A DNA stretch of 64,000 nt from an uncultured bacterium. GTDB lineage: Bacteria > Eisenbacteria > RBG-16-71-46. Each line of letters opens with the position of its first letter. The stretch's first letter is position 1. Positions 27,649 to 64,000 of the stretch are shown here, piece by piece. Location of the stretch: the NCBI GenBank assembly GCA_964655175.1, contig CAZZLY010000004.1:15465-79464 (forward strand), written 5' to 3'. The translations under genes and the position numbers were made by a program. The notes under the pieces are model-generated. The model did not search any database, was not told the DNA's origin, and was given only the letters and a program-made list of their open reading frames with translations.

Positions 27649-27754
27649 TCCGATCCGTCGGACATCCGAGGATCGGCCCGTTGGGGGGCCGCGCCTCAGC
27701 ACCGCGCAAGTGGGTCGGCGGCCTGCGTGAACCGCCGTTCCAAGGAGGGAACAG

Positions 27755-32825: not shown

Positions 32826-32828
32826 CGC

Positions 32829-37583: not shown

Positions 37584-37584
37584 C

Positions 37585-39803: not shown

Positions 39804-39824
39804 CCCACGAGGGAGGGACCCCCC

Positions 39825-41063
39825 ATGGCGCAGGCGACACGGGTGTACGCCGGACTGGACATCGGCACGACCAAGATCTCGTGCATCATCGCCGATCGGA
39901 ACGCGGCGGGTGAGATGCGCATCCTCGGTGTCGGCAACGCGCCGAGCGACGGTCTGCGTCGCGGCGCCGTGGTCGACCTCGAGAAGACCGTCGCCAGTGT
40001 CACCAAGGCCGTCGAAGAGGCCGAGCGCATGGCGAACGTGCAGGCCAAGGGCGTGCACGCGGGCATCGCCGGTGACCACATCCGCAGCCTCAACAGCCGC
40101 GGTGTCGTGTCGGTCTCGCGCAAGGACAACGAGATCGCCGCCGCCGACGTGTCGCGCGTCATCGAGGCCGCCAAGGCGATCGCCATCCCCATGGACCGCG
40201 AGATCATCCACGTGATCCCGCAGGAGTTCATGGTCGACGAGCAGGCCGGCATCAAGCAGCCGGTCGGCATGAGCGGCGTGCGCCTCGAGGCCGAGGTCCA
40301 CATCATCACCGGTGCGGTCACGAGCGCGCGCAACATCTGCCGCGCCATCCAGCGCGCCGACCTCAAGGTGTACGACCTCACGCTGCAGCCGCTCGCCTCG
40401 GCGGCGGCCGTGCTCGACCACGACGAGAAGGACCTGGGCGTCGTGCTGCTCGACATCGGCGGCGGCACCACCGACGTCGCCGTGTTCCACGAGGGCGCGG
40501 TGCGGCACACGAGCATCATCCCGTTCGGCGGCGCCAACGTGACGAGCGACATCGCCATCGGGTTGCGCACGCCGATCGACAAGGCCGAGGCCATCAAGAT
40601 CCAGTACGGCGCGGCGCTCGCCGCGATCGTCGGCGGGGACGAGATGGTGGGCGTCTCCGGCGTGGGCGGACGCGCCGAGAAGGAGATCTCGCGCCACACG
40701 CTCGCGTCCATGATCGAGCCGCGCATGGAGGAGATCTTCCAGCTCGCGAACAAGGAGGTCCGCAAGAACCACTTCGCGCCCCTGATCGGTGGCGGCGTCG
40801 TGCTGACGGGCGGGACCTCGCTGCTGCCCGGTGCGGTCGAACTCGCCGAGCAGGTGTTCGAGATGCCGGTGCGCATCGGTCTGCCGCGCGGGCTGACCGG
40901 GTTGTCCCCGAATCTCGCCGATCCCCGTTACGCGACGGGCATCGGTCTGGTGCTCCACGCGGCGCAGGCCGAGGCGGAGCCCATGCAGGATCTGGTCGAA
41001 TCGGGAGCGGGCCGGACTCGCCCGCTGCTCGACATCAAGAGCTGGTTCTCCAACCTCTTCTAG
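39825..41063 (+). CDS. ftsA: Cell division protein FtsA
   Basis: Actin-like ATPase motifs (GLDIGTTKISC, DIGGGTTDVAVF). Confidence 0.9.
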   Translation: MAQATRVYAGLDIGTTKISCIIADRNAAGEMRILGVGNAPSDGLRRGAVVDLEKTVASVTKAVEEAERMANVQAKGVHAGIAGDHIRSLNSRGVVSVSRKDNEIAAADVSRVIEAAKAIAIPMDREIIHVIPQEFMVDEQAGIKQPVGMSGVRLEAEVHIITGAVTSARNICRAIQRADLKVYDLTLQPLASAAAVLDHDEKDLGVVLLDIGGGTTDVAVFHEGAVRHTSIIPFGGANVTSDIAIGLRTPIDKAEAIKIQYGAALAAIVGGDEMVGVSGVGGRAEKEISRHTLASMIEPRMEEIFQLANKEVRKNHFAPLIGGGVVLTGGTSLLPGAVELAEQVFEMPVRIGLPRGLTGLSPNLADPRYATGIGLVLHAAQAEAEPMQDLVESGAGRTRPLLDIKSWFSNLF

Positions 41064-41126
41064 TCCATCACGCCGAGCGCACTCGGGCCGGGAGCCCGGG
41101 GCCTCGAACACTGGAGGGTTCCCCGC

Positions 41127-42338
41127 ATGTCCTCGTTCGAACTCGAGATCGACCGCACCGACTCCGCCAAGCTCAAGGTCATCGGCTGTGGTGGTGCCGG
41201 AGGTAATGCCGTCAACCGCATGATCGGTGCGGGGTTGCGCGGCGTCGAGTTCATCGTGGCCAACACGGACACCCAGGCGTTGGCGCAGTCGCTGGCGCCC
41301 ACCCGGCTGCAGATCGGCGCGGTCACCACGCGCGGTCTGGGCTCGGGCGGTGACCCCTCGACGGGCCGTCGCTCCGCCGAGGAGGACGAGGCGGTGCTGC
41401 TCGACGCGCTGCAGGGCGCGGACATGGTGTTCATCACCGCCGGCATGGGCGGCGGCACGGGCACGGGCTCGGCGCCGGTGGTGGCGCGGCTCGCCCGTCA
41501 GGCCGGTGCGCTCACCGTGGCGGTGGTCTCCAAGCCGTTCATGTTCGAGGGTCGCAAGCGCATGCAGCAGGCCGAGCAGGGGCTGGCCGAACTGCGCGCC
41601 GAGGTGGACACGCTGCTCGTGATCCCGAACGAGCGCCTGCTCGCGGTGGTCGACAAGAGCACGCCGCTGTCCGAGGCGTTCGCGGTCGCCGACAACGTGC
41701 TGCTGCAGGCCACCAAGGGCATCTCGGAGCTGGTCACGGTGCCGGGTCTCGTCAACCTCGACTTCGCCGACGTCAAGAGCATCATGGCCAACCGCGGCAA
41801 CGCCCTCATGGGCTCGGGCCGCGCCTCGGGCCCCAACCGCGCACTCGAGGCGGCGAGCCAGGCGGTCGCGAGCCCGCTGCTCGAGGACGTCTCGATCCAC
41901 GGTGCGCAGGGCGTGCTCGTCAACATCACCGGTGGGCGCGACCTGTCGCTGTTCGAGGTGAACGAGGCCGCGCAGGTCGTCACGCAGGCGGCCGGCGAAG
42001 AGGCCAACGTGATCTTCGGTGCGGTCATCGACCCGTCGCTCGAGGGCGAACTGCTCATCACGGTCGTGGCGACCGGCTTCGGGGTGCAGCCCGCTCGCGG
42101 CACGCGCACGATGGCCACGCCGCGTGCGGCGGCGACCACGCCCAGCTCGAGCACGACCACGCCGACCCCGGCCGCCGAGCCGGCCGTCGCCGCGACCGTG
42201 CCCGACGAGTACGAGGGCATGTCCACGCCGGCGTGGCAGCGCCGTGGGGATTCGAGCCGTCCGCGCTTCGGCCGCGAGGCCACGTCGCGCGGCGATTCGC
42301 TCGAGATCCCGACGTTCCTCCGCCGTCAGATGGACTGA
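41127..42338 (+). CDS. ftsZ: Cell division GTPase FtsZ
   Basis: Tubulin signature GGGTGTG, a T7 loop, and the C-terminal conserved peptide [12 protein letters not shown]. Confidence 0.95.
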
Positions 42339-42349
42339 GGTCCGCGTGG

Positions 42350-43989
42350 CCTTCCTGAGGTCGTTGGTGAAGTGGGGGCACAACCGCCGCTACAACGAGG
42401 GCATCCTCCACTTCAATCAGGGCGACTTCGAGCGGGCCGCCGAGTGCTTCGAGCGGGTCCTGCAGGAGGTCCGGGATCCGGACGATCCCGACCACTGCCT
42501 GGCGCTCGTGCACGCGGCGGAGGCGCGCGCCAATCTGGGACTCGCGTACCTGCAGGCGGGCGACCACGCCCGCGCGGAAGCCGAGTTCACGCGCGCGCTC
42601 GACGAGAACCCCACGTTCCCCGACCTGCGCTACCAGCGCGCGCGCCTGTACGAGCGCTCGGGCCGACTCGCCGAGGCGGTGGCCGACCTCGAGCGTGCGA
42701 TCGACGAGCACCCGCACTACATGGAGGCGCACCTGCTGCTCGCGGTGTGCCTCGGGGCGCTGGGCGATCGCGAGCGCTCGTCGGCCGAACTGGGCGAGGC
42801 CCTCACGCTGGGACTCGAGGCGCCCGACTGGGTGACGCCCGAGGTCGCGCGCGAGTGGAGCGGGGAGCAGTGGCGTCGGCTGTTGCCCGGCAGCAGCGAC
42901 CGCGCCGTGCATCGCAGTCCTCTCGATGACGCGCTCGCGCGGCAGCAGGCGGGCGATCTCGACGGTGCGGTGGCGGCGTTGCTGCAGGCGGTCCACGACA
43001 AGCCCGGCTACGCCGACCTGCGCTGCCGCCTCGCGGGCCTGCTGCTCGAGGCCAAGCGCCTCGACGAGGCGTTGGGCCATCTGCGCGTGGCGCTCGAACT
43101 CAATCCGCGTTACCTCGAGGCGCGCCTGCTCGCCGCGCGCGTGCAGTTGGAGCGCGGGGATGCGCGCGGCGCGGAGGCGCACGCCCTCGCCGCGCTCGAG
43201 ACGTACCCGCAGTACCCCGACCTGTGGTTCTGGCTGGGGCTGGCGCGGTTCCGTGCCGCCGACCTCGAGGGCGCGCGCGAGCCGCTCGAACGCGCCGTCG
43301 ATCTCAATCGCCAGTTCGCGCGCGCCCAGCGCCTGCTCGGGCTCGTCTACCACGCGCTCGGTCGTCAGGACGACGCGCTGCGCGCGGTCCGGCGCGGGCT
43401 CGCGCGTGGCAGCGAGGCGCCGCGCGCCGCGCTCGCCGAGTCGCAGATGCTGTACGAGCTCGGTGACCTGAACGGGGCGGAAGAGGCGGTGCGGCGCGCG
43501 CTGGGGCTGTCGCCCGAGTGGCCCGATCTGCACTTCGCGCTCGCACGCATCCTGCGCGCGCTCGACCGGCTCGAGGAGGCGTCGGCCGCCTACGATCGCG
43601 CGCTCGAGTTGGCGCCCGGCTACGACGCGGCCGCGCTCGAGGGTGCCGCGCTCGCGATCGAGATGGCGCGACCCGAGCGGGCCGAGGGCCGCCTCGTCGC
43701 CCTGCTCGGTCGTCGGCCCCGCTGGGCCGACGCGCATGCGCTGCTGGGCCGGGTGCGGCTCATGCGCGACGATGCCGCCGGGGCCGAGACCGCGTTGCGA
43801 GCGGCGCTCGAGTTGCACCCGGGCTTCGCCGCCGCCCGCGCCGACCTGGGCTGGGCGCTGCTGCGACTGGGCCGCGCGACGGAGGCCGATGCCGAGTTCG
43901 CGCAGGCGCTCGAACTCGACCCGTTGCACGCGCTGCCGCGCGAGCAGATGGCCTGGCGCGAGCTGCTCGTGCCGACCCGCGACGCCTGA
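42350..43989 (+). CDS. TPR-repeat protein immediately downstream of ftsZ
   Basis: About 14 TPR-like repeats (for example AEARANLGLAYLQAGDHARAEAEFTRALDENPTF). Start codon uncertain: GTG at 42350, with TTG/GTG at 42368/42371 as alternatives. No terminator between ftsZ and this gene. Confidence 0.65.
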
Positions 43990-44010
43990 CCCGCGCGCGG
44001 GGGACATGAA

Positions 44011-47177: not shown

Positions 47178-48962
47178 TCAGCGCGCGATCAGCACCCGGT
47201 TCGTCGTCGTGGTGGTCCCGCGGCGCACCTGCACGAAATACATGCCGGGTGCCTGCCGCGAGCCGTCCCACGTGATCGAGTGGGCACCGGACGCGAACGG
47301 CGCGTCGGCGATCACCGCGATCTCGCGGCCCTGCAGGTCCACGACGCTGGCGCGGACGTGTTCGTCACGCGACACCGCGAAGCTCAACGTGATGCGTCCC
47401 GCCGTCGGGGTCGGCCCGACGTTCACCCGCAGCGCACCGTCCAGGCCCGCCGCCGTCGGCTCGGTCGAGCGGCCATCCCGCTCGTTCTCGACGACCGGCG
47501 CATCCGAACCCATGATGTGCTGCATGCCCTTGGCCCACACGAGGGCGGCCACGTCACGGCCCATGCGGCGCGAGATCAGGTCGCCGTCCTCGAAGTGGAT
47601 GCCGCCCAGACGCCGCGAGATGCCGGCCTCGTCGGCCGCCTCGCTGAACGTGCGCCAGCGCAGCGTCACCGGACGCGACGGGGCGAAGCCCGGCTCGACC
47701 TTGCTGCTGCCGGCGGCGATCGTCACCGAGTGATCGAAGTCGTCGCTGCCCGTGAAGCGCTTGAGGATCTCGGCCGACGACGAGCTGAACGCGCTGTGGC
47801 CCGACGGGAACTCGGAGAACGGCGGCGTCACGAACGTGGCCGGCTGATAGGGCATCCACGCCTCGCCATCGACCAGCCCACGACCCTGGAACGGGATGTA
47901 ACCGCGCACCTTCTGGCCCGCGAACAAGTAGCGCACCGCGGTGATCGGGCGCTCGGAGTCGTAGTACACCTTGGCGTCCCACACCGCGATGCCGGCGTCC
48001 ATGACCGCGTTGCCGAGCAGGAAGAACATCTTCACGTCCTGATCGAACGTGTGGTGGTCGCGCGCCGACACCAACTCGGCGAACAACGTCCAGTGGCCCG
48101 GGGGCAGTTCCGACTTCGGGCCGTCCGCCCAGTACTCGGCGATCACCTTGCCGCGGTCGTCGAGGTGCTCGGTCAGTTCCATGACGTCGCGCGCCTGACG
48201 CTCGTACTCACGGCTCGGGAAGCGGGCCGGGCCCACCGCGGGGCGCAGCGCGTCGCCCGTGGGCATGCCGAACGGCTTCACGTGACCCCAGTGCGCACCG
48301 ATGTAACCCGGCACCACGAAGCCACCCGCACCGTTCGAGAACCGCAGCGGCTGCCAGCGATTGGGGTCGCGGATCGCATCCACCGTGTTCACCGGCTGAT
48401 AGCCGGTGTAGTCGGTGTACGCCCCGGCGTGCAGGTCGCCCAACTGGTTCGAGCCGTCGTGGTGACGCTCGTCGAGCAGCACCTTGGAGCAGGTGTTCCC
48501 CACGCCCTGCGCGGTCGTGGTGCCGAGCGTCTGGTCGTCGGCGTCGTAACCGAGCGCCAGCATCTTGGCGCGGATCAGGTCGCGGCCGGCGGGGAAGATA
48601 TCCTGCATGGTGCGCGCGACCGCGTAGCTGTACGCCTTCTCGCGGTTGGCGGCGGTGCGTTCGGCGGCCGGCCGACGGAAGTCGCCCATCGGGACCGTGG
48701 GCACGGCGACGTCGTCGTAGCACGACCACGCGTCGAAGCCGGCGGTGTGCACCAGGCCGATGCCGCGTGCGACCATGGGCGGGCCGAGCTTCTGGATCCG
48801 GATGCACTGCAGCAGCACCTCGTTCCACTGCACGACCAGCGTGGGGTCCGTGGCGGGTTCGATCACGTGACCACGGCCGTCCTCGGCGTGAGCGGCGGCG
48901 GCGAGGACGAGGCTGGCGGCGAGGGCCAGTGCGGACAGGAGGCGGATGTGACGGGACTTCAT
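47178..48962 (-). CDS. Secreted PAP2 / vanadium-dependent haloperoxidase-like protein with T9SS-type C-terminal domain
   Basis: Signal peptide MKSRHIRLLSALALAASLVLAAAAHA. PAP2 / acid-phosphatase-haloperoxidase motifs (PSGHSAFSSS and SRRLGGIHFEDGD). The C-terminal roughly 80 aa (...GRITLSFAVSRDEHVRASVVDLQGREIA...GMYFVQVRRGTTTTTNRVLIAR) resemble the C-terminal domain of the 17961..20261 protein. Confidence 0.75.
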   Translation of the reverse strand: MKSRHIRLLSALALAASLVLAAAAHAEDGRGHVIEPATDPTLVVQWNEVLLQCIRIQKLGPPMVARGIGLVHTAGFDAWSCYDDVAVPTVPMGDFRRPAAERTAANREKAYSYAVARTMQDIFPAGRDLIRAKMLALGYDADDQTLGTTTAQGVGNTCSKVLLDERHHDGSNQLGDLHAGAYTDYTGYQPVNTVDAIRDPNRWQPLRFSNGAGGFVVPGYIGAHWGHVKPFGMPTGDALRPAVGPARFPSREYERQARDVMELTEHLDDRGKVIAEYWADGPKSELPPGHWTLFAELVSARDHHTFDQDVKMFFLLGNAVMDAGIAVWDAKVYYDSERPITAVRYLFAGQKVRGYIPFQGRGLVDGEAWMPYQPATFVTPPFSEFPSGHSAFSSSSAEILKRFTGSDDFDHSVTIAAGSSKVEPGFAPSRPVTLRWRTFSEAADEAGISRRLGGIHFEDGDLISRRMGRDVAALVWAKGMQHIMGSDAPVVENERDGRSTEPTAAGLDGALRVNVGPTPTAGRITLSFAVSRDEHVRASVVDLQGREIAVIADAPFASGAHSITWDGSRQAPGMYFVQVRRGTTTTTNRVLIAR

Positions 48963-52847: not shown

Positions 52848-53264
52848 ATGTCCAGCCAGAAGATCGTGCGCTGCCAGTTGGTCCGTAAGGGGAGCGACGC
52901 CAAGCCGCAGGTGCGCTACGTCCCGCTCGAGATCTACGGTCTGTGGGAGCACCTCATGTCCTCGAAGCACGGCTTCGAGGTGCGTGATGCACGCGCCTCG
53001 CTGTGGCTCGACATGGAGGACTCGCCCGAGGCCGCGTACACGCAGGACCAGTACGACCGCGTCGTCGAGGTGACGGCCTACGTGTACTCGCAGCGCGACG
53101 ACATGTTCACGCGCGCGCGGCGCTACTTCCGCGCCGACGAGGCCGACCAGCTCAAGCGCATCTTCCTGTCGCACTACACGGGTGAGGAGTCGCGCATCCA
53201 GACGCAGGTCCACGAGCGCTCGGGCATCTGGATCGTCCGTGAGGCGCTGGTCGGCAACGTCTAG
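52848..53264 (+). CDS. Hypothetical cytoplasmic protein
   Basis: AAGGAGG RBS directly upstream. Codon usage consistent with coding. No recognisable motif. Confidence 0.45.
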   Translation: MSSQKIVRCQLVRKGSDAKPQVRYVPLEIYGLWEHLMSSKHGFEVRDARASLWLDMEDSPEAAYTQDQYDRVVEVTAYVYSQRDDMFTRARRYFRADEADQLKRIFLSHYTGEESRIQTQVHERSGIWIVREALVGNV

Positions 53265-53288
53265 CCCACCGTCCCATCGTTCGCGCCG

Positions 53289-53330
53289 GGGCGCGGTCCC
53301 GCCGGTCGTCACGGCGCCGGGACCGCGCCC
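53289..53330 (+). terminator. Stem-loop downstream of the hypothetical gene
   Basis: GGGCGCGGTCCCG (16 nt loop) CGGGACCGCGCCC: a 13 bp perfect stem followed by TTCGCG. Only a short U tract. Confidence 0.4.
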
Positions 53331-53658
53331 TTCGCGTGTCCGCCCATGGCGCCGCGCACGCGGTGGGGGCCCGATCCGCGCGGTCCGCCGCGTCCACGCC
53401 CCCCGCGTCACGGGCCCACACGGGTTCCGCAAGATTCTCCTCAAGTCCGCGGTGGGGGCGCGCCGATACCCTGCCCGCAGCGTTCATCCCCGCAGTGTCT
53501 CCAAGCAGGGAAGCTCGGGCGTCACGCCCGACCGTTGTGGCGACCCCATCCGTGAACGGCTTCGCCGTTCGCCTCGGGGCCCGTGGAGAAAGGGCGGCAA
53601 GGGGCTCCATGGATCACCCCGTGAAGGGGTGGGGTCACCACTAGGGAAGGAGAGCAAC

Positions 53659-54813
53659 GTGGTCGTCGTCAGCTATTCGGGTAAGGAAATCAACGCCAAG
53701 CTGGTCTATTACGGTGCCGGCCTGAGCGGCAAGACGACGAACCTGGAAGCCATCTACGAGGCCGTGCCCGATGCGAGCCGCGGCAAGATGGTGAGCATGA
53801 AGACGCAGTCCGACCGGACGCTCTTCTTCGATCTGCTCCCCCTCGATCTCGGCGAGATCATGGGGTTCAAGACGCGCTTCCTTCTTTACACGGTGCCGGG
53901 TCAGGTGTTCTACAACGCGACCCGCAAGCTGGTCCTCAAGGGTGCCGACGCGATCGTGTTCGTGGCCGATTCCGAGGTCGGTAAGATGGAGGAGAACAAG
54001 GAGTCGCTCGCGAACCTGCGTGCGAACCTGGCCGAGTACGGCCTCTCGCTGGACTCCATCCCGTGGGTGATCCAGTACAACAAGCGTGATCTGCCGAACG
54101 TCTACACGGTCGACGAGTTGAACGCCGAGCTCAATCCCACGGGCGTGCCGTCCTTCGAGGCGGTGGCGAGCGAGGGGCGGGGAGTGTTCGAGACCTTCCG
54201 CGGCGTGTCGCACCTGTTGATGGAGAAGGTCACCAAGGACCTGCGCCGTCCCTCCGCGACGACCACCCCGCGCCCCGTGAGCACGCCGGTGAGCCCGGAG
54301 CCCGTCGCCGAGACGCCGGTCGCCACGGTCACCCCGATCCGCAGCGCGCCCACGCTGGCGCCGATCCAGGCGATCCGGCAGGAGTCGCTGACGTCGCACG
54401 AACCGGCGCCCGAGCCCGTGTTCGAGATCGAGCGCACGCCCGCGCCGCGCATCCCGGCCACGCTGCACGTGGAGCCGCAGGTGCCCGAGCCCGTGACGAC
54501 CTCGGCCGCCAACGACGAGCCGTTCCGCACGGTGCCGCTGCCGCGCCCCTCGGGTCTGATGTCGCGCCCGACGTTCGCGACCGAGCCGACGCCCGAGGTC
54601 ACGGCCCCGACGCCGACCTTCGAGTCGCCCGAGCCCGCGGTCACGCCGCTCGCCACGGTGACGCCGATCCCGGTGACGCATGCGGTCGAGCCGACGCCCA
54701 CGACCGACGAGGTCGAGGTGCGGCACATCGTGGTCCCGGTGCAGCTGCCGCCGGGTGGGAAGTACGAGATCGTCATCAAGCTCCAGATCGACACCCAGCA
54801 GCAGGCGGCCTGA
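53659..54813 (+). CDS. mglA: MglA-like Ras-superfamily small GTPase with a roughly 190 aa Pro/Thr/Glu-rich C-terminal extension
   Basis: The N-terminal 195 aa align motif-for-motif with Myxococcus MglA (YSGKEINAKLVYYGAGLSGKTTNL; TQSDRTLFFDLLPLDLGEI; FLLYTVPGQVFY; ADAIVFVADS; VIQYNKRDLP). GTG start with a GGAAGGAGAG RBS. The C-terminus is low complexity, with internal imperfect repeats (EPVAETPVATVTPI / EPAVTPLATVTPIP). Confidence 0.8.
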   Translation: MVVVSYSGKEINAKLVYYGAGLSGKTTNLEAIYEAVPDASRGKMVSMKTQSDRTLFFDLLPLDLGEIMGFKTRFLLYTVPGQVFYNATRKLVLKGADAIVFVADSEVGKMEENKESLANLRANLAEYGLSLDSIPWVIQYNKRDLPNVYTVDELNAELNPTGVPSFEAVASEGRGVFETFRGVSHLLMEKVTKDLRRPSATTTPRPVSTPVSPEPVAETPVATVTPIRSAPTLAPIQAIRQESLTSHEPAPEPVFEIERTPAPRIPATLHVEPQVPEPVTTSAANDEPFRTVPLPRPSGLMSRPTFATEPTPEVTAPTPTFESPEPAVTPLATVTPIPVTHAVEPTPTTDEVEVRHIVVPVQLPPGGKYEIVIKLQIDTQQQAA

Positions 54814-54869: not shown

Positions 54870-54898
54870 TTGACAGGGGCGGCGCGGGTTCCTAGCTT
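54870..54898 (+). promoter_or_regulatory. Sigma70-type promoter candidate (TTGACA-N17-TAGCTT)
   Basis: Exact TTGACA at 54870..54875, a 17 nt spacer, TAGCTT at 54893..54898, then the GGAGG RBS and the ATG at 54918. Confidence 0.45.
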
Positions 54899-54917
54899 CT
54901 GGGGCGGGAGGACCACC

Positions 54918-55391
54918 ATGATCCGTCGCCGTGCCGTGATGTCGCTCGCCGTGCTCGTCGGTTCGCTGCTGCTCGTCGCGCCCCGCGCGCGGGCCAACGG
55001 TTTCATGGACGACGGCGGCTACGTGCCGCGCGTGCCCGTCTCGGCGTTCGCGCATCCGGCGGCGTGGTTCGATCCCTCGCGCCTGCACTTCAACTCGACG
55101 ATCGCGTTCGGCACCGGTGGGGGCGGCCGCTCCAGCGCGCTGCAGACGCTCGGCTTCAGCTACCAGTTCCGCGCGCCGCTGACGCTCAACGTGAGCGTCG
55201 GGAACACGTTCGGCACCGAGAGGTCGGGGCAGAACCCGTTCTTCCTGCAGGGGCTCGACGTCACCTGGCGTCCGAGCCGCAACGCCACGTTCCGCGTCGA
55301 GATGCGCGACGTCCGGTCGCCGCTGCAGTACGGCTACGGCCCGTTCGGCCGCCCGGCGATCGGCGCCGACCCGTTCACGTCGCCGTACTGA
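54918..55391 (+). CDS. Small secreted protein, possible outer-membrane beta-barrel
   Basis: Signal peptide MIRRRAVMSLAVLVGSLLLVAPRARA. Alternating hydrophobic pattern and a C-terminal aromatic residue (...DPFTSPY), consistent with a small OMP. Confidence 0.45.
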   Translation: MIRRRAVMSLAVLVGSLLLVAPRARANGFMDDGGYVPRVPVSAFAHPAAWFDPSRLHFNSTIAFGTGGGGRSSALQTLGFSYQFRAPLTLNVSVGNTFGTERSGQNPFFLQGLDVTWRPSRNATFRVEMRDVRSPLQYGYGPFGRPAIGADPFTSPY

Positions 55392-55395
55392 CGAC

Positions 55396-56187
55396 TTGAG
55401 CGCCTCGCGTCTGGCCTCGGCGTTCGCGTCCCGCACGGGCGCGACCGGGCTCATCCCGTTCCTCACCGCGGGCTATCCGTCGCTCGACGCCTCGCTCGCG
55501 ATGATGCACGCCCTCGAGCACGCCGGGGCGCTCGCGATCGAGGTGGGGGTGCCGTTCTCGGACCCGATCGCCGACGGCCCCGACATCCAGCGCGCCTCCG
55601 AATGGGCGCTGCGCGCCGGCGTCGGCGTGCGCGACGTGTTCGCCCTGGTGGCGCGCTTCCGCGAGCGCTCGTCGTTGCCCGTCGTGATCATGACCTACGC
55701 GAACCCCGTCGCGCGGATCGGCGCCGAGGCGTTCGCGCGTGAGGCCCGTGCGGCCGGCGTGGACGGCATCATCCTGTCCGACCTGCCGCCGGACGAGCTG
55801 CCCGAGACCTGGGCCGCGATGGACGCCCACGGCCTCGACACCGTGCTGTTGATCGCCCCGACGACCGCGGCCGAGCGTCTGCCTCGATTGCTCGCGCGCT
55901 GCCGCGGCTTCGTGTACTGCCTGTCGCGCACCGGGGTCACCGGGCAGTCGGGCGGCTACGCCGGGTCCCTGGATGAGCGCCTGACGCAGGTCCGCGCCGC
56001 GAGCTCGCTGCCGATCGGTGTGGGCTTCGGCATCTCGACGCCGGCCGATGCCGGGGCGCTGCGCGGCAAGGTGGATGCGGCGATCGTCGGGGCCGCCTTC
56101 ATGCGCCTCGTGACGCAGGACCCCGCCCACGGTGTCGTGGAGCGCGTCGAGACGCTGGCGCGCGGGCTGGTGGACGCGCTGCGCTGA
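55396..56187 (+). CDS. trpA: Tryptophan synthase alpha chain
   Basis: TrpA motifs (LIPFLTAGYP, IEVGVPFSDPIADGPDIQ, GFGIS). TTG start. No trpB adjacent. Confidence 0.9.
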   Translation: MSASRLASAFASRTGATGLIPFLTAGYPSLDASLAMMHALEHAGALAIEVGVPFSDPIADGPDIQRASEWALRAGVGVRDVFALVARFRERSSLPVVIMTYANPVARIGAEAFAREARAAGVDGIILSDLPPDELPETWAAMDAHGLDTVLLIAPTTAAERLPRLLARCRGFVYCLSRTGVTGQSGGYAGSLDERLTQVRAASSLPIGVGFGISTPADAGALRGKVDAAIVGAAFMRLVTQDPAHGVVERVETLARGLVDALR

Positions 56188-56342: not shown

Positions 56343-56370
56343 TGAAGTCGCTTGCCCGACCTGCCGATAC
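56343..56370 (+). promoter_or_regulatory. Candidate sigma28 (FliA)-type promoter upstream of csrA-flgM
   Basis: tGAAGtcg-N12-GCCGATAC, compared with the TAAAGTTT-N11-GCCGATAA consensus. The -10 half matches 7 of 8, the -35 half is weak. About 125 nt upstream of csrA. Confidence 0.3.
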
Positions 56371-56496: not shown

Positions 56497-56715
56497 ATGC
56501 TGGTCCTAACAAGGAAGTTAGGAGAGAACATCCGGATCGGTGATTCGGTGAAGATCACCGTGCTGGAAGTGCGCTCGGGGCAGGTCAAGCTCGGCATCGA
56601 AGCGCCGCCCGAGGTCAAGGTGCACCGCGAGGAGATCTACGCGCGCATCCAGGAGGAGAGCCGCAAGTCCGGCGCCCCGCGTCCGACCGCGACTCCCGAC
56701 CCCGGCAAGAAGTGA
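56497..56715 (+). CDS. csrA: Carbon storage regulator CsrA
   Basis: [48 protein letters not shown] is near-canonical CsrA. GGAGG RBS. Confidence 0.9.
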
Positions 56716-56761
56716 ACCGGTCACGCACCGCCGCAGGTGCGTCCCGCTTCCACGAGGTTCC

Positions 56762-56953
56762 ATGAGCATCCGTCGCAAGTCTGGCCCGTCGCGCCCGAAC
56801 AAGGCGCGCGTCACGCCGTCGTCCGCGTCCGGTATCGTGCGTCTGGATCGTGTCGTCGAAGCCCGCCGTCGGATCGAGCAGGGTTGGTACGACCGTCACG
56901 ACGTCCGCGAGCGTCTCGTCGAGGCCGTGCTGAACACGCTGCAGACGAGCTGA
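56762..56953 (+). CDS. flgM: FlgM-like anti-sigma28 factor (short)
   Basis: 63 aa. The C-terminal RLDRVVEARRRIEQGWYDRHDVRERLVEAVL resembles the FlgM C-terminal sigma28-binding helices (…KV..iK.aI..G.Y.vd...iA..l). Located between csrA and a strong terminator and near fliA. Confidence 0.5.
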   Translation: MSIRRKSGPSRPNKARVTPSSASGIVRLDRVVEARRRIEQGWYDRHDVRERLVEAVLNTLQTS

Positions 56954-56974
56954 GTATCGGGCGGTGACGCCCTT

Positions 56975-57012
56975 CGAAGAGCCGCCGGGTCCCATCGGAC
57001 CCGGCGGCTCTT
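56975..57012 (+). terminator. Strong intrinsic-terminator-like hairpin after flgM
   Basis: GAAGAGCCGCCGGGTCC catc GGACCCGGCGGCTCTTC: a 17 bp perfect stem and 4 nt loop, followed by ACTTGGG. Confidence 0.55.
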
Positions 57013-58270
57013 CACTTGGGACGAGCGGGTGGGTGCGTTAGGCTGCCCGCTGGACCAAGGACGGCTCCCATGACCCCCAGCAAGACCCCGCGGCGACCCG
57101 CCGCGTCACGCTCCGAACCGCAGGCCGCGTTCCCCATCGAGGACGGCTTCCGCGTCCTCATGGACGACGCCGAGTCCGGCGTGCTCGTGCTCGCGCCCGA
57201 TCGCACGGTCGCTTCGGCGAATCCCGCGGCGCTCAAGCTGCTCGGGGTGTCCGCCGCGCAGGCGCGCCGCGCCGAAGCCTCGGCGCTGCTGTGCACGGTG
57301 GTCGCGGGCGAGGACCTGGTGCGCGACCTGTTCGCGGCCGCGTCGCTCGAACGTCAGGCGGTGCTGCACACGCCGGGGGCCGGCGACGTGCCCGTGCTCG
57401 TGACCGCGCATCGCGTGGGCCGGCCGGCGTGGGTCATCGTCACGTTGCACGACCTCACCCGCATGCACCGCATGCAGCAGGAACTGCGCCGGCACGAGCG
57501 TCTCGCCACGCTGGGCCAGCTCTCGGCGGGCGTGGCGCACGAGATCCGCAACCCGCTCGCCGGCATCGGCACGAGCGCGCAGGTGCTGTTCAAGCGCTTC
57601 GAGCCCGGCGACGATCGCGCGCGCTTCGTGCAGGTCATCCTCGACGAGGTCGCGCGGCTCGATCGCATCGTCACGAGCCTGCTGCAGTACGCGCGGCCGC
57701 GGCAGCCCGAACTGCGGCCCACGCGACTGGCCGACGTCGTCGAGCGCGTGCTCGCGGTGCAGCGGCAGCGCGCCGAGGGCCAGGGCGTCGTGGTCGAGGT
57801 CGAGGTGGCGCCGCGTCTGGCGCCGGTCTACGTCGACGCCGACCTCATCCAGCAGGTGCTGCACAACGTCACCACCAACGCGCTGCAGGCCATGCCCACG
57901 GGCGGGTCGCTGCGCTACGAGGTGCGACTCGTGCGCCGCCGCCGCATCCCGCGCGGCGCGGGCCGTCGCGCCGAGGACACCGCGCCGCATCCCGGTCGGC
58001 GCGCCTCGGATCGCGCGCCGGAGTCGTTGCCCGGCGAGTCGGCGTGGATCGAGACGCAGCAGATCCGCGTGATCGACACCGGTGTCGGCATCCCGAGGGG
58101 CAACCTCGCCAAGATGTTCGACCCGTTCTTCACCACCAAGGCGGCGGGCACGGGGCTCGGCCTGAGCATCTCGCAGACCATCATGCAGGAGCACGGCGGT
58201 TCCATCGCGGTCGACAGCAAGGAAGGCCGCGGCACCACGGTGCTCCTCAATTTCCCGCTGGAGAAACGCA

Positions 58271-59689
<1,419 letters not shown>

Positions 59690-60033
59690 GGCGCACCCCG
59701 CCCCGGACCGGGGGCGGTCAAAATCCGTCGCCCCGCGTGCCGGGGCGGTCGGGAATCGAGCGGCCGGACCCCTCGCGGGACCGGCCGTTCGCCTTTCTGG
59801 CCGGGAGGGCGACGGTCGGGAGGGTCGGCCCGGGACCGATCGGGCATGCGAATCGCAAGGTGATGCCGTGCAGCATGTTGTGCGATTCCAAAAGGCGTGG
59901 CCCAGGGCTCCGGGACCGCCCGGACGGGGGGCCAGAGGTGGTCCGAGGGGGCCGCCGGGCGTCGTGGCACGAGGGGTGCAAAACAGTCCGGTGAACGGAT
60001 TCTCGCCAACCCCCAGCGCACGGAGCCACACGA

Positions 60034-60431
60034 TGCCCCACATCCTGATCGTCGAAGACGAGCCGACGATGTCCTGGGCCCTCGCCGAAGGGCTCTCGGA
60101 CGACGGCTACACGATCGACACCTTCCGCACCGCGGAAGAGGCCCTGCACTGGCTCAAGACGAACCGCAGCGACCTCGTCATCACCGACTACCGCCTGCCC
60201 GGCTTCTCGGGCCTCGAACTGGCGACCAAGCTGTCGCGCGGCCGCAACGCGCAGCCGGTGATCGTGGTCACCGCCTACGGCAACACCGACACGATGCGCG
60301 AGCTGCTGCGCGCCGGCGTCGCCGAGGTGTTCCCCAAGCCGTTCCACGTCGACGAGCTGCGCCGCGCCGTGCGCCGCGCGCTCCTGAGCCGTCCCGAGCG
60401 TCGTCGCGCCCCGCTGCGGAGGGCCGCATGA
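60034..60431 (+). CDS. CheY-like single-domain response regulator receiver
   Basis: ILIVEDEP...DLVITDYRLPGFSGLEL...VIVVTAY...K: a complete receiver fold with no output domain in this ORF. Confidence 0.8.
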
Positions 60432-60432
60432 A
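60415..60432 (+). repeat. 18 nt exact direct repeat TGCGGAGGGCCGCATGAA (copy 1) at the receiver / sigma4 gene junction; copy 2 at 60660..60677
   Basis: The identical 18-mer spans stop, RBS and start at two consecutive gene junctions 245 nt apart. Both upstream proteins end in (L/M)RRAA. Confidence 0.8.
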
Positions 60433-60676
60433 CGCCCGCCTGCCGAAGAAGGTCGCCGCGCTGCCGCTGCGCGTGCGTCTGGCCGCCGCCCTCGAGGCGC
60501 TGCCCGAGACCGATCGTCGCGTCCTCACGCTGCGTCTGCTCGAGGGCCTGTCGGCCAGCGAGACCGCCGGCGCGCTGAACCTGCGCCCCGCCGACGTCGA
60601 GCGCCGCACGACGCTGGCGCTCACGACTCTGTCCACCGAACTGGGCGTCCGTACCCCGATGCGGAGGGCCGCATGA
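60428..60676 (+). CDS. Sigma70-region-4 (ECF sigma region 4_2)-only protein; possibly the split-off output domain of the upstream receiver
   Basis: LPETDRRVLTLRLLEGLSASETAGALNLRPADVERRTTLALTTL is a sigma-70 r4_2-like HTH. ATG overlaps the receiver stop (ATGA). Receiver plus this ORF total 214 aa. Confidence 0.55.
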   Translation: MNARLPKKVAALPLRVRLAAALEALPETDRRVLTLRLLEGLSASETAGALNLRPADVERRTTLALTTLSTELGVRTPMRRAA

Positions 60677-60900
60677 AGCCGTTCGTCCCCGTCACCGCGT
60701 TGAGCGACCCCCGTCGCGCGATGCCGACCGATCCGACGCTGCGCCTGCGCGCCGCCGACGCGGCGGTCGAGTCCCTGACCGCCGAGCAGCGCCGCCTGGA
60801 CCGCATGGGTCTCGAGTGGCCGCTCGCGCGCACGCAGCAGCAGCTGCGCTACTGGCGATTCGTGCGTGCGCTGTGCGCCGTCGCCGCGGAGGCCGCGTGA
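60673..60900 (+). CDS. Small hypothetical protein (75 aa) upstream of the FlhG-like ATPase
   Basis: ATGA-coupled to the previous ORF and GTGA-coupled to the next. No recognisable motif; it occupies the position where flhF is usually found. Confidence 0.35.
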   Translation: MKPFVPVTALSDPRRAMPTDPTLRLRAADAAVESLTAEQRRLDRMGLEWPLARTQQQLRYWRFVRALCAVAAEAA

Positions 60901-61793
60901 GCAAGCGTGCGTCGAAGGGCCCGATGAAGGTCGTCGAGGGGGGCCGCACGGCGGCCGAGTTCGGTCCGGCGCACGCCGCCGAACTGACCCGTCCCAAGGT
61001 CCGCACGATCGTCGTCGCCAGTGGCAAGACGGGCGTGGGCAAGAGCAGTGTCGCGGCGAACCTCGCGGTCGCGCTGGGTCAGCGCGGTGCGCGCGTCGTG
61101 CTCGTGGACGCCGACCTCGCGCAGTCGCATCTGGACCTGCTCCTGGGCGTGCACCCGCGTTACGACCTCGGTCACGTCATCGAGCGTCAGCGCACGATCG
61201 ACGAGATCGTCGTGCCGGGGCCCACGGGCGTGACGCTCGTGCCCGGACCCGCCAGCACGCGCGCCATCACGTCGCTCGACGACTTCCGTCGCGAGACGTT
61301 CCTGCGCTCGCTCAGCATCGTGGACCCGGCCGCGGACCTCATGATCATCGACGCGCCCTGGGGCTTCGGCCGCGAGACGCTCGAGCTGTGCCGCATCGCC
61401 CACGAGGTCCTCGTCGTCGCCTCGACCGAGGTCATGTCGCTGCCGGACGCGTACGCGCTGCTCAAGGCGCTGCAGAAGGCCGACGCGCTCACCCGTGCGC
61501 CGCGTCTGCTCCTCAACATGGCCACCACCGAGGACGAGGCGGACGAGATCGCCGCGCGCATGTCGGTGTTCGCCCGCCACTTCATGAAGCTCGACATCGA
61601 GTCGCTGGGCAGCATCCCGTACGACCACGCGGTCACGCGGGCCGAGCACGCCCAGGAGCCCCTCGTGCTGTCGCAGTCGCAGTCCCCGGCCGCCGTCGCG
61701 ATCCGTGCGCTGGCGACCCGGATGTGGAAGCCCGCCCCCACGGGTCCCGACTTCGTCGAAGAGTCGGATCTCTCTCGCCGCCTCGGAGCCTAA
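60897..61793 (+). CDS. flhG: MinD/ParA-family ATPase, FlhG (FleN)-like flagellar number regulator
   Basis: Deviant Walker A SGKTGVGKSS; ParA/MinD core; located directly upstream of fliA. The start may be the ATG at 60924. Confidence 0.65.
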   Translation: MSKRASKGPMKVVEGGRTAAEFGPAHAAELTRPKVRTIVVASGKTGVGKSSVAANLAVALGQRGARVVLVDADLAQSHLDLLLGVHPRYDLGHVIERQRTIDEIVVPGPTGVTLVPGPASTRAITSLDDFRRETFLRSLSIVDPAADLMIIDAPWGFGRETLELCRIAHEVLVVASTEVMSLPDAYALLKALQKADALTRAPRLLLNMATTEDEADEIAARMSVFARHFMKLDIESLGSIPYDHAVTRAEHAQEPLVLSQSQSPAAVAIRALATRMWKPAPTGPDFVEESDLSRRLGA

Positions 61794-61803
61794 GGAGACC
61801 GCC

Positions 61804-62700
61804 ATGCCCCGCGCCGCCGCCCCCGCCGCGTCCGCCCGCAAGAAGACCACGACCTCGCGCCGCCCCGCGCTCAAGGTCGTCAACGGTCGTCGTCCGCAGA
61901 CCGTGGCCCGTCCGGCCACGACGTCCAAGGCGACCACCGCCGTCGTCGAGGCGCCCAAGGCCACGAAGGCCGCCACGTACAACAAGAACGACCTGCTCAA
62001 GCGCTTCGCGCCGCTCGTGCGCCACGTCGTCGAGCGCGTCGCCGCGACGCTGCCGCGCAACGTGGATCACGAGGACCTGTACTCGGCCGGCGTCCTGGGC
62101 CTGCTGGACGCGCACGCCAAGTTCGACACGCACAAGGGCGTGAAGTTCGAGACCTACGCCGTGTGGCGCATCAAGGGTGCCGTGCTCGACCAGCTGCGCG
62201 CGCTCGACTGGGCGTCGCGTTCGATGCGTCGCAAGGCGCGCAACCTCGACGGCGTGACGCGCAAGCTCGACCAGAAGCTGGGTCGCGCCGCGTCCGAGGA
62301 CGAGGTCGCCCGCGAGCTCAAGATGTCGCGCGAGGACTTCTACCGTCTGCTCGACCACGTCCGTGGCGCCGTGCTCGTGTCGCTCGACGAGACGCGCGGC
62401 AACGACGGTGACGACAACAGCACGCTGGCGGACCACCTCGCCGATCCGAACGTGGTCGACCTCGAGGCGCGCCTCATGGACGACCAGACCCGCCGCATGC
62501 TGCTGCGCACGATCGACCAGCTGCCGGAGCAGGAGCGACTCGTGGTCGCGCTGTACTACTACGAGGCGCTGACGCTCAAGGAGATCGGTCGCACGCTCAA
62601 CATCTCCGAGTCGCGCGTCTCGCAGGTGCACACCCGCGCCATGTCGCGTCTCAAGCTGCGCATGCAGAAGACGGCCGTCGCGTTCGACGAGGCCGCGTGA
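61804..62700 (+). CDS. fliA: Flagellar sigma factor FliA (sigma28) with a roughly 60 aa basic N-terminal extension
   Basis: Sigma70 regions 2, 3 and 4 (DLYSAGVLGLLDAHAKFD; TYAVWRIKGAVLDQLR; LTLKEIGRTLNISESRVSQVHTRAM). AGGAGA RBS. The N-terminal Ala/Thr/Lys-rich 60 aa are not typical of FliA. Confidence 0.85.
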   Translation: MPRAAAPAASARKKTTTSRRPALKVVNGRRPQTVARPATTSKATTAVVEAPKATKAATYNKNDLLKRFAPLVRHVVERVAATLPRNVDHEDLYSAGVLGLLDAHAKFDTHKGVKFETYAVWRIKGAVLDQLRALDWASRSMRRKARNLDGVTRKLDQKLGRAASEDEVARELKMSREDFYRLLDHVRGAVLVSLDETRGNDGDDNSTLADHLADPNVVDLEARLMDDQTRRMLLRTIDQLPEQERLVVALYYYEALTLKEIGRTLNISESRVSQVHTRAMSRLKLRMQKTAVAFDEAA

Positions 62701-62720: not shown

Positions 62721-63101
62721 ATGTCGAAGCTGCCCGCACCGCCCTACGAAGCCCTGGTCGAACGCCTCGAGGCGTTCGCGGTGGCGCTGGAGCAGGCGGG
62801 GCAGACGACCTCGGCGACCGAGCTGCGGGACACCCTGGCCCGGTGGGCGGGGGAGCAGGACGAGTGGAACCAGCGGGTGCGCGAGATCCTGGGCGTGCAC
62901 CACGAGATCAACAACGCGCTGGTGGGCGTGCGCGGCAACGCGCAACTGATGCTCATGCAGTCGGCCGGGCAGGCGCCCGGCGTGCGTGAGCGACTGGAGG
63001 TCGTGCTCCGTGAATCCAGCCGAATCCAAGAAGCGACCGGCCGACTCGGTGAACTCAAAGGCGTCCTCGGACGCGCCGTCCAGCGACCGCATGCCGCGTG
63101 A
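62721..63101 (+). CDS. Stand-alone HisKA (DHp) dimerisation/phosphoacceptor-domain protein
   Basis: H-box-like VHHEINNALVGVRGNAQLM flanked by predicted helices; no HATPase domain. GGGGGAGAGG RBS before the ATG at 62721; the alternative GTG at 62697 overlaps the fliA stop. Confidence 0.5.
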   Translation: MSKLPAPPYEALVERLEAFAVALEQAGQTTSATELRDTLARWAGEQDEWNQRVREILGVHHEINNALVGVRGNAQLMLMQSAGQAPGVRERLEVVLRESSRIQEATGRLGELKGVLGRAVQRPHAA

Positions 63102-64000
63102 TCGGAACACCGCGCCCGCGCTGACCCCGCCGCGCGACCGCAAGGGCGACACGCCCTCGCCGTCGGCGGAGCCGCGTACCGACCGCCGGGCCGCCTCGGG
63201 CTGCCTGTGGGACGCGTGCGAGGCCCTGTTGTCGTCGCGCTTCGAAGCGGCGGCGCTCGAGCGTGCGCTCGACGCGCTCGTCACCGCTTTCGACTGCGAC
63301 GGCGTCGCGCTGCACGGGTTGGGCGATGCGGGCCTGCTCGAGCCGTGGTGCGCCCGCGGGGCGTGGGACCGTGCGCCCGGCGATCTGCGTCAGGCCATGA
63401 GCGTGCCGCTGTTCCGGGGCGAGGAGCGCGTGGGCGCGCTCGATCTGCTCGCCAAGCCGGGTCAGCGTTGGCGCCCCGATCAGCTGTCGCTCGTGCGCAC
63501 CGCCTCGGGGGCCCTGGGGGCCGCCGTCGGCGCGCGTCTCGAGCTCGAGCGTCTGCAGCACGCGCCGCATCGCGACCCGGTCACGGGTCTCGCGGACGGT
63601 CGTGCGTTCCGGCATCACCTCGTCGAGGCCATGGGCCGCGCCGAGGCCGACGGCACGCCGCTCGGTGTCGTGGTCGTGGACCTCGACCTGTTCGCCTCGC
63701 TCAACGAGAAGTACGGCCGGCACGTGGGCGACCAGGTGCTCGCCGAGTGCGCGCTCGTGCTCAAGCTGGCGCTGCGCGAAGGCGACGTCATCGCGCGTCT
63801 GTCGGCCGATCGCTTCGCGGTCGCGCTGCCGGACTGCGATCTCGCGCCGGCGCGTCGTCTGGCCGAACGTCTCCGTCATGCGCTCGAGGAGCATCGCTTC
63901 CCGCGCGTCGGCCGTCTGAGCGTGTCCGCCGGTGTGGCGGCCTCGCCGCGCGACGGCATGGACCCCGCCGAACTGCTGACGTCGGCCGAGCGCATGCTCG
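63091..64000 (+). CDS. GAF-domain plus degenerate-GGDEF protein, 3'-truncated by the window edge
   Basis: Absent from the ORF track because it has no stop inside the window. Translating from the ATG at 63091 gives a GAF-like region (VPLFRGEERVGALDLLAK) and a GGDEF domain (RDPVTGLADGRAF...VVVVDLDLFASLNEKYGRHVGDQVL...) whose signature reads RLSADRFAV (SADRF in place of GGEEF). It overlaps the DHp gene by 11 nt. Confidence 0.7.
   Translation, partial: MPRDRNTAPALTPPRDRKGDTPSPSAEPRTDRRAASGCLWDACEALLSSRFEAAALERALDALVTAFDCDGVALHGLGDAGLLEPWCARGAWDRAPGDLRQAMSVPLFRGEERVGALDLLAKPGQRWRPDQLSLVRTASGALGAAVGARLELERLQHAPHRDPVTGLADGRAFRHHLVEAMGRAEADGTPLGVVVVDLDLFASLNEKYGRHVGDQVLAECALVLKLALREGDVIARLSADRFAVALPDCDLAPARRLAERLRHALEEHRFPRVGRLSVSAGVAASPRDGMDPAELLTSAERML

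Follow-up and report, generated by a model that had tools for sequence, protein, structure and literature searches.

A tailed MglA-family GTPase of Candidatus Eiseniibacteriota with a predicted leader RNA and a putative sigma-28 promoter

MglA is the model for Ras-like control of polarity in bacteria. To our knowledge, the MglA systems studied so far consist of a bare GTPase (G) domain that is localised and cycled by separate proteins, MglB and RomR/RomX, and they are tied to pili or gliding. Among relatives, SofG carries terminal extensions, and the eukaryotic Ras, Rho and Rab proteins join a conserved G domain to a flexible, hypervariable C-terminal stretch with a short conserved targeting element at its end. 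Here we describe an MglA with a long C-terminal tail from an uncultured bacterium (GTDB lineage Eisenbacteria, RBG-16-71-46; assembly GCA_964655175.1, contig CAZZLY010000004.1, positions 15,465 to 79,464). The whole stretch of 64,000 nucleotides (nt) that we analysed is called the window, and all coordinates count from its first letter. The long mglA open reading frame (ORF) lies on the plus strand at 53659-54813, begins with GTG, stops at 54811-54813 and encodes 384 amino acids (aa).

The hallmarks of Group 1 of the MglA family are a P-loop of the form GxxxxGKT, an arginine next to the threonine of G2, the motif TVPGQ and the motif NKxD (Wuichet and Sogaard-Andersen 2015, PMC4316618). In this group the intrinsic arginine and the glutamine carry out catalysis, and MglB merely positions them (PMC4316618). 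An mglB gene lies within four genes of 390 of the 449 family members, which makes this arrangement typical and not obligatory (PMC4316618). The MglA of Bdellovibrio bacteriovorus functions without any MglB; it has S21 and is predicted to be GTP-locked, while G21 usually goes with a GTPase-activating protein (GAP) in published surveys (PMC3983030). SofG works through the landmark bactofilin BacP (PMC4316618, PMC4085708).

Compared with the MglA proteins of Myxococcus xanthus and Thermus thermophilus (5YMX/6H17 and 3T12), the protein described here has the same P-loop, G21, R53-T54, TVPGQ with Q82, and NKRD. It differs from them by a C-terminal linker and terminal motif, by the lack of an mglB within four genes, by a sigma-28-type promoter and a predicted structured leader in front of the gene, and by its host, an uncultured phylum carrying flagellar regulators. 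Because the linker and motif are added, it has 384 aa instead of about 195 aa, and both this length and the orthologue median of 370 aa exceed the roughly 160-200 aa of a single-domain Group-1 protein. Overall, we lean towards the reading that this MglA is a switch of the flagellar regulon, tethered by its linker and a docking motif.

The G domain and its C-terminal extension

The G domain (aa 1-196, 53659-54246, plus strand) was compared with the PDB by phmmer. Residues 3-193 matched MglA of M. xanthus (6h17, E 1.6e-73; 6h17 and 5ymx at about 1.7e-73) and of T. thermophilus (3t12, E 5e-72), with 59% identity to the former. All PDB matches at E <= 0.001 were MglA entries, and the Pfam Arf model scored 20.7 bits, under its cut-off. 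An earlier note on this DNA, made from the sequence alone, had recognised MglA in the first 195 aa and had named best matches to generic Ras or Rab proteins as the finding that would overturn the identification. The PDB comparison upheld the identification: residues 1-195 match solved MglA structures, and the catalytic motifs are intact.

In particular, the P-loop G19AGLSGKT26, the G3 motif T78VPGQ82 and the G4 motif N141KRD144 are invariant in 48 orthologues, and nearly all columns of the G domain are invariant in the same set. The intrinsic arginine finger is found in D52-R53-T54, which aligns with R53-T54 of M. xanthus; it is invariant in the 48 orthologues, as is G21. We thus assign the protein, by sequence, to MglA Group 1 and not to generic Ras, Rab or Arf GTPases. 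Judged by its motifs, the G domain is catalytically intact, and GTP binding and hydrolysis are predicted. The tailless Bdellovibrio protein, which does without MglB, has serine at position 21; since the protein here keeps G21, a hydrolysis cycle is to be expected.

The reading frame was examined from start to stop. A Shine-Dalgarno sequence, AAGGAG, lies at 53647-53652, 7 nt before the GTG at 53659. Both elements are invariant in 48 aligned orthologous leaders, and the start codon is therefore secure. The GC content at the third codon position (GC3) is 0.90 across the G domain; for the tail, read in the same frame, it is 0.97. Of the alternative frames of the tail, +1 contains 7 stops; +2 contains none, but its GC content peaks at codon position 1 (0.97), which is a non-coding pattern. 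In every complete orthologue, the motif at the very C terminus is conserved in frame. The G domain and the tail therefore form one continuous reading frame, and a frameshift is excluded. This agrees with the earlier description of a tail fused in frame to MglA and removes the objection, raised with it, that the tail might be a separate ORF reached through an overlooked frameshift.

The long-tailed MglA is not peculiar to this genome: by sequence comparison, the tailed protein is the standard form across Candidatus Eiseniibacteriota, and we found it in more than 200 loci. Long homologues number at least 120, since the 120 best database matches all have between 317 and 488 aa. Scanning one genome for each species yielded 80 loci, nearly all in metagenome-assembled genomes (MAGs) titled Candidatus Eisenbacteria or Eiseniibacteriota and including the complete chromosomes OY970178.1 and CP070702.1; a further 120 long-mglA loci came from metagenomes. 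Among 55 unique complete long proteins, the median pairwise identity is 91% for the G domain versus 32% for the tail.

The tail comprises 189 aa (P 20%, T 15%, V 11%, E 9.5%, A 9.5%) with a negative net charge. It includes a conserved junction, EKVTKDLRR. Most of it is a low-complexity linker rich in Pro, Thr, Val, Glu and Ala (aa 197-356, 54247-54726, plus strand), whose length ranges from about 130 to 340 aa among family members. The imperfect internal repeats that the earlier note had picked out are real: 9 of 12 residues agree between aa 216-227 and 326-337, and the corresponding DNA (54306-54340 and 54636-54670) is 83% identical. This PT-rich repeat is, however, confined to the closest relatives of the window protein, so that it is a lineage-specific trait and not the conserved feature of the tail.

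What is conserved had been missed by the earlier note, namely an island within the linker and a motif of roughly 22 aa at the extreme C terminus. The island, APIQAIRQE in the window protein (aa 234-242, 54358-54384, plus strand) and APVQAIRxE in the family, is referred to below as QAIR. A second island, RIDYGxEIELP (DYGxEIELP), occurs in most orthologues and is degenerate in the window's sub-clade. The terminal motif, IVVPVQLPPGGKYEIVIKLQID (aa 357-378, 54727-54792, plus strand), has the consensus (V/I)(V/I)P(V/I)x(L/V)..G..xE(I/V)(V/I)(L/I)(R/K)(I/L), or in short form VVPVxLPxGGxxEIVLRI. Practically every ORF that is complete and intact in the 84 genome and JGI loci ends in it, divergent sub-clades included. 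In the chromosome CP070702.1, which has a lower GC content, the linker is about 320 aa long and Glu-rich rather than Pro/Thr-rich; the homologue nevertheless keeps QAIR and the terminal motif. The conserved design is therefore a G domain, a linker of free length and composition, and a terminal peptide. Hydrophobic and polar residues alternate around the PxGG turn of the terminal motif, a pattern suggestive of a strand-turn-strand or beta-hairpin with one hydrophobic face. A search of the PDB with the terminal-motif profile found no relative.

The layout resembles that of Ras, Rho and Rab, with their hypervariable region and anchor, by analogy only and not by homology. The linker here is 5-10 times longer, and the end is a hydrophobic/charged motif of roughly 22 aa, not a lipidated CAAX box.

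Two irregularities were seen in the collection of loci. One MAG contig (L072, 5581-6162) carries a 200-aa MglA whose first 175 aa or so are identical to the long family. A different helix of canonical appearance follows, and the stop codon falls 23 nt short of the contig end; this may be a true short variant or an error of assembly. Loci L005 and L016, whose long MglA proteins differ from each other and show 69% and 58% identity to that of the window, are filed in a single MAG, JANNWR01, which suggests a mixed bin and not paralogues.

Promoter and leader of the long mglA

Upstream of the gene we found a sigma-28 (FliA)-type promoter, TCAAG-N16-GCCGATA, at 53441-53468 on the plus strand, identified by pattern match and by conservation. 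With the strict pattern it is the sole match in the 64 kilobases (kb) of the window, where 0.02 matches are expected. The relaxed pattern gave 2 matches versus 0.09 expected, and the second one, TGAAG-N15-GCCGATA (56343-56369, plus strand), lies upstream of csrA (56500-56715, plus strand; PF02599, E 1.4e-24; TIGR00202). Among 51 orthologous loci, 33 have such a site in front of csrA. For mglA, 127 of 157 unique upstream regions align when anchored on CCGAT(A/G) and give T (0.83) x A (0.87) A (0.77) G (0.91), 15 nt, G (0.82) CCGATA. Most of the remaining regions have GCCGACAA or GCCGAAAA behind TCAAG; with these variants counted, the element occurs in about 155 of the 157. In a sub-clade that lacks the leader RNA, the promoter is still there, about 57 nt before the start codon.

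Published sigma-28 elements read TCTAAAG at -35 and GCCGATAA at -10 (PMC12784957). The promoters here share with late flagellar promoters the -10 element GCCGATA(A/C/G), the -35 element T(C/G/A)AAG, the nearby fliA and the consensus in front of csrA; the difference is that the driven gene is an MglA. The window encodes a FliA/WhiG-family sigma factor, sigma-28, at 61804-62700 (plus strand; TIGR02479, 246.8 bits versus a cut-off of 189.6; Pfam sigma-70 regions r2, r3 and r4), preceded by a MinD/FlhG-like ATPase (60897-61793, plus strand). This FliA is the factor expected to read both promoters. The match to consensus and its conservation thus suggest sigma-28-dependent transcription of the long mglA, alongside late genes of the flagellar regulon. 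In a full-text literature search, no report placed an MglA in a FliA regulon.

Between this promoter and the Shine-Dalgarno sequence lies a predicted structured 5' leader RNA of roughly 105 nt (53537-53641, plus strand), delimited by conservation, covariation and fold. On the plus strand it would be closed by a long helix, P1 (53537-53551 with 53627-53641). Within P1 follow a variable hairpin (53552-53572), a covarying helix P2 (53575-53579 with 53617-53621) and a helix P3 (53580-53588 with 53605-53613), which closes an invariant 16-nt loop, AAAGGGCGGCAAGGGG (53589-53604). A 24-nt core, GGAGAAAGGGCGGCAAGGGGCUCC (53585-53608), is invariant across the phylum and occurs once in the window.

Different parts of the leader were informative in different ways. 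The P1 duplex was present in all 142 leaders whose 3' strand could be located, with a median of -27.6 kcal/mol, and it is supported by its conservation and by a few compensatory changes. P2 covaries strongly: it was fully paired in 97% of 149 unique leaders, versus 48% when partners were permuted and 0% when the strands were slid. In an unfitted MAFFT alignment, 4 of the 5 P2 pairs showed compensatory changes on both sides and 99.4% of cells were paired. The covariation score of P2 was 0.308 versus 0.217 +/- 0.013, a value reached by none of 500 shuffles, and slid controls paired in 34-57%. P3, being invariant, is uninformative for covariation. The minimum-free-energy fold of the window sequence on its own reproduced the leader structure.

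The leader also appears to be dedicated to one gene, since 74 of 75 testable metagenome copies of its core sit 47-56 nt before an mglA start. Against the 4227 families of Rfam 15, there was no match at E <= 10 beyond chance-level hits to unrelated families, and identification as a known riboswitch or small RNA was rejected on this ground. Overall, the comparative evidence points to a structured, previously uncatalogued RNA dedicated to mglA. Riboswitches and protein-binding leaders likewise occupy the 5' untranslated region between promoter and Shine-Dalgarno sequence, and they share the closing helix round a junction, the covarying helix and the invariant loop nucleotides. The leader here differs from them in having no Rfam 15 family and in serving a single gene family; its binding of a ligand or protein is putative. 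CsrA sites, looked for by eye, were unsupported, as GGA is not conserved apart from the Shine-Dalgarno sequence.

The regulators mentioned above form part of a motility and signalling cluster at 56500-62700 and 62986-64000. The first stretch comprises csrA, a 63-aa ORF (no matches) at the place where flgM often sits, a histidine kinase with a sigma-54 response regulator, a receiver protein, an 82-aa protein consisting of sigma-70 region 4 alone, the MinD/FlhG-like ATPase and FliA. After the 63-aa ORF there is a GC-rich, near-perfect palindrome, GAAGAGCCGCCGGGUCC...GGACCCGGCGGCUCUUC (56956-57014), with Rfam matches at chance level only, which is probably a terminator. The second stretch, 62986-64000, encodes a GGDEF protein that extends past the window end.

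MglB, the upstream protein and competing readings

The earlier note had pointed out that no mglB is adjacent to the gene. We examined this in two ways. In the precomputed Pfam annotation of neighbours, no Robl_LC7 gene was found within 10 kb at the orthologous loci, so that the Group-1 arrangement of mglB within four genes is lacking for the long mglA. We then used the MglB of M. xanthus (identical to 6h5b_B) and of T. thermophilus, taken from a PDB alignment, as queries for phmmer and hmmsearch against six-frame ORFs of at least 60 aa from the window and from 207 loci (1.46 Mb, 13,030 ORFs). There was no Roadblock or MglB sequence anywhere in the window, and the 1.46 Mb gave a single match, on a 1.1-kb metagenome contig (L176). 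The observation thus held up within 10 kb of the orthologous loci and throughout the window.

The L176 contig deserves care. It carries the leader of the long family and the N-terminal 150 aa of its MglA, then the C terminus of a different, short MglA, and then a Roadblock gene. Up to the shared segment QYNKRDLPNV its MglA is about 90% identical to the long family, and exactly there it switches to the type of another contig, L209. We rejected an ancestral leader-mglA-mglB operon because of this exact switch; the contig is probably an assembly chimera or a recombinant. A canonical module does exist in several high-GC soil metagenomes, with genes for PATAN-REC, REC-Roadblock, a short MglA, MglB and a PilB-type ATPase with an MshEN domain (L176, whole contig; L208, 1-760; L209, 1038-1905; L210/L211, 3781-11125). 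The short MglA has 205 aa and is 53% identical to the G domain here. With this module found, the absence of an adjacent mglB is solid as a statement about the neighbourhood, but not about the genome.

The gene upstream of mglA encodes a family-less protein of 138 aa (up138; 52848-53264, plus strand), and we asked whether it might stand in for MglB. It precedes mglA in most of 84 loci; the copies in loci L001 and L003 are 73% and 82% identical, and identity falls to about 62% in the first search and to 35-43% in divergent loci. A word-indexed search found 462 homologues; among the matches listed they are 134-188 aa long, most of them 137-139 aa, and the few with an organism name are mostly Candidatus Eisenbacteria. 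The protein matched nothing in Pfam, NCBIfam or the PDB. Its AlphaFold2 model has a predicted local distance difference test (pLDDT) value of 81 and a beta-beta-alpha-beta-beta-beta-alpha-beta topology, unlike Roadblock; Foldseek found no match to it in the PDB, MglB structures included (best template-modelling score 0.28). Neither the Robl_LC7 signature (PF03259) nor the alpha-beta-beta-alpha-beta-beta-beta Roadblock fold was thus found, and up138 was rejected as a cryptic MglB, in line with the earlier remark that the upstream gene shows no Roadblock pattern. An exhaustive profile search gave 174 remote representatives without Pfam domains, one of which (P0348) carries a fused receiver domain; neither of the two gene contexts examined among the remote homologues showed a link to MglA. 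As a partner or GAP of MglA, up138 is a candidate.

In the reading that we favour, the tailed MglA would be a nucleotide-dependent (GTP/GDP) switch of polarity or localisation that is made together with late flagellar-regulon genes. The linker would act as a flexible tether, and the terminal motif as a docking element that fixes the G domain to a partner or landmark. The leader RNA may add post-transcriptional control through binding of a ligand or protein. Because G21, R53 and Q82 are retained, a GAP is probably still needed for GTP hydrolysis; it could be an unlinked MglB or a non-Roadblock protein, up138 being one candidate. The earlier suggestion that the tail implies a different mechanism of localisation or regulation has become more plausible because the architecture is conserved family-wide, with the function of the tail itself still a matter of prediction. 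A bolder combination, in which the tether and docking peptide replace MglB- or RomR-type partners, the sigma-28 regulon places the protein in a flagellum-related polarity decision, and the leader is a new riboswitch class for a nucleotide or second messenger (guanine nucleotide, (p)ppGpp or cyclic di-GMP), seems to us rather unlikely to hold in all its parts.

Several observations weigh against the tethered switch. The full-length AlphaFold2 model is poor (mean pLDDT 52, low even in the G domain), values of 70-89 are reached in the tail for aa 351-380 only, and DSSP assigns no strands to the terminal motif in this model. Because of the low mean pLDDT and of a G-domain alignment that is too invariant, the model is uninformative on docking of the tail; the disorder of the linker and the binding by the motif are predictions. 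As for the promoter, the sigma-28 assignment is a presumed one, made by consensus, and the spacing from the -35 AAG to the -10 GCCGATA is most often 15 nt, one more than the 14 nt in fliC of Pseudomonas aeruginosa. The window contains no flagellar structural genes, and flagellation is suggested by the regulators FliA, the MinD/FlhG-like ATPase and CsrA. As for the proposed partner, up138 is absent from a sub-clade with tailed MglA (L071, L073, L076 and L081-L083), and locus L042 keeps the leader RNA with no up138 within 6 kb. Since it is missing at some loci that keep the tail and at at least one that keeps the leader, up138 is weaker as an obligatory partner. A role for up138 in binding the leader is likewise weakened by L042; by eye, up138 looks acidic. 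Finally, the existence of the short mglA-mglB-pilB module in similar metagenomes means that the tailed protein may be a second paralogue.

This last point leads to the strongest alternative, which we regard as possible but clearly less probable. The tailed protein could be a SofG-like second paralogue beside a canonical short mglA-mglB(-pilB), an accessory GTPase that positions, for example, a flagellar or pilus component; such a role would be compatible with a tether. The 205-aa MglA that adjoins MglB, the PilB-type ATPase, PATAN-REC and REC-Roadblock in similar soil assemblies speaks for this alternative. The L176 contig, joining the leader and N terminus of the long MglA to the C terminus of a short MglA and mglB, looks like an assembler crossing paralogues or co-occurring genomes, and M. 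xanthus has just such a pair in MglA and the orphan SofG (PMC4316618, PMC4085708). On the other hand, a link of the short module, known from metagenome contigs, to Eiseniibacteriota is putative. Identity to M. xanthus MglA hardly differs between the long G domain (59%) and the short one (58.5%), and the long one is more constrained than would be expected of an accessory paralogue. SofG and the tailed protein are both orphan Group-1 MglA-family GTPases uncoupled from mglB; the latter has no N-terminal extension, a G domain much nearer to MglA proper, and a C-terminal motif without a detected relative.

Compared with the tethered switch, it is also doubtful that the tail works in cis, with the terminal motif or the QAIR helix folding back as a built-in autoinhibitor or as a GAP-like or guanine-nucleotide-exchange-factor-like element that replaces MglB. 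The absence of mglB from the locus in about 200 genomes and contigs and the invariant G-domain surface would fit such a latch, and a short-peptide precedent is reported for M. xanthus, where the C-terminal helix of MglB controls MglA allosterically (PMC6785124). However, the full-length AlphaFold2 model shows no confident docking of the tail, a linker of free length (130-340 aa) is more typical of a distant partner than of an intramolecular latch, and the intrinsic Arg and Gln of Group-1 MglA already catalyse with MglB only positioning them (PMC4316618).

Two further explanations of the tail have become highly improbable. One holds that it is the degenerate remnant of a fused MglB: the canonical mglB sits directly downstream of mglA, and the helix and strand-turn-strand islands of the tail are, compared by eye, loosely colinear with Roadblock elements, but hhalign, comparing the profiles of tail and MglB, aligned just one column at a probability of 0.3%, Pfam finds no Robl_LC7 in the tail, and this origin, close to refuted, was rejected. 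The other takes the extension for neutral low-complexity sequence tolerated at high GC, or for a frameshift or misassembly; the linker is indeed poorly conserved, its composition follows genome GC, and short variants occur on two contigs (L072 and L176), but the frame runs on unbroken with a GC3 typical of coding DNA (0.97), and about 200 independent assemblies have the extension. Phylum-wide, the terminal motif and QAIR island are conserved at a fixed position, and each of the short variants either sits at a contig end or looks chimeric. The conservation data thus largely refute this reading, and together with the frame they exclude an artefact.

Genomic surroundings and significance

The surroundings of the gene are conserved. 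Upstream on the minus strand are genes for a major facilitator superfamily (MFS) transporter, a GT4 glycosyltransferase and a lipid-A-type acyltransferase. On the plus strand, up138, a gap of 300-800 nt, the long mglA, an ORF of 150-173 aa and trpA follow one another; farther downstream come csrA, the histidine kinase and sigma-54 response regulator, the receiver protein, the MinD/FlhG-like ATPase and the FliA-family sigma factor. In the window, a GC-rich hairpin follows up138 at 53278-53342 (plus strand; -46.6 kcal/mol, z -2.66), as the earlier note had seen. It looks like a terminator without a U-tract and, having no T run, was not called by the consensus terminator scan. Downstream of mglA, the conserved ORF at 54870-55391 (plus strand), present in most loci, encodes a beta-rich protein with a signal-peptide-like N terminus and without a match in Pfam or NCBIfam. 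A lone trpA abuts it at 55396-56187 (plus strand).

Elsewhere in the window, the minus strand at 47178-48962 encodes a secreted protein with DUF6851, a vanadium-chloroperoxidase-like helical domain and a C-terminal sorting domain of the type IX secretion system, and the sorting domain implies that the organism has such a system. From ORF starts and GC3 gene calls only, 1-25000 looks like a glycosyltransferase/polysaccharide cluster and 26000-44000 like a dcw (cell-division and cell-wall) cluster with an ftsA/ftsZ-like end.

What is new here is a family of MglA proteins whose C-terminal tether and motif are conserved and whose regulatory setting is new; the leader RNA is the most novel item. 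As a well-supported new candidate cis-regulatory RNA, the leader would have a single target, a GTPase. The promoter may provide the first link of MglA to the flagellar hierarchy. With a built-in linker and terminal motif throughout, the phylum as a whole would amount to a natural experiment on how small GTPases gain targeting regions.

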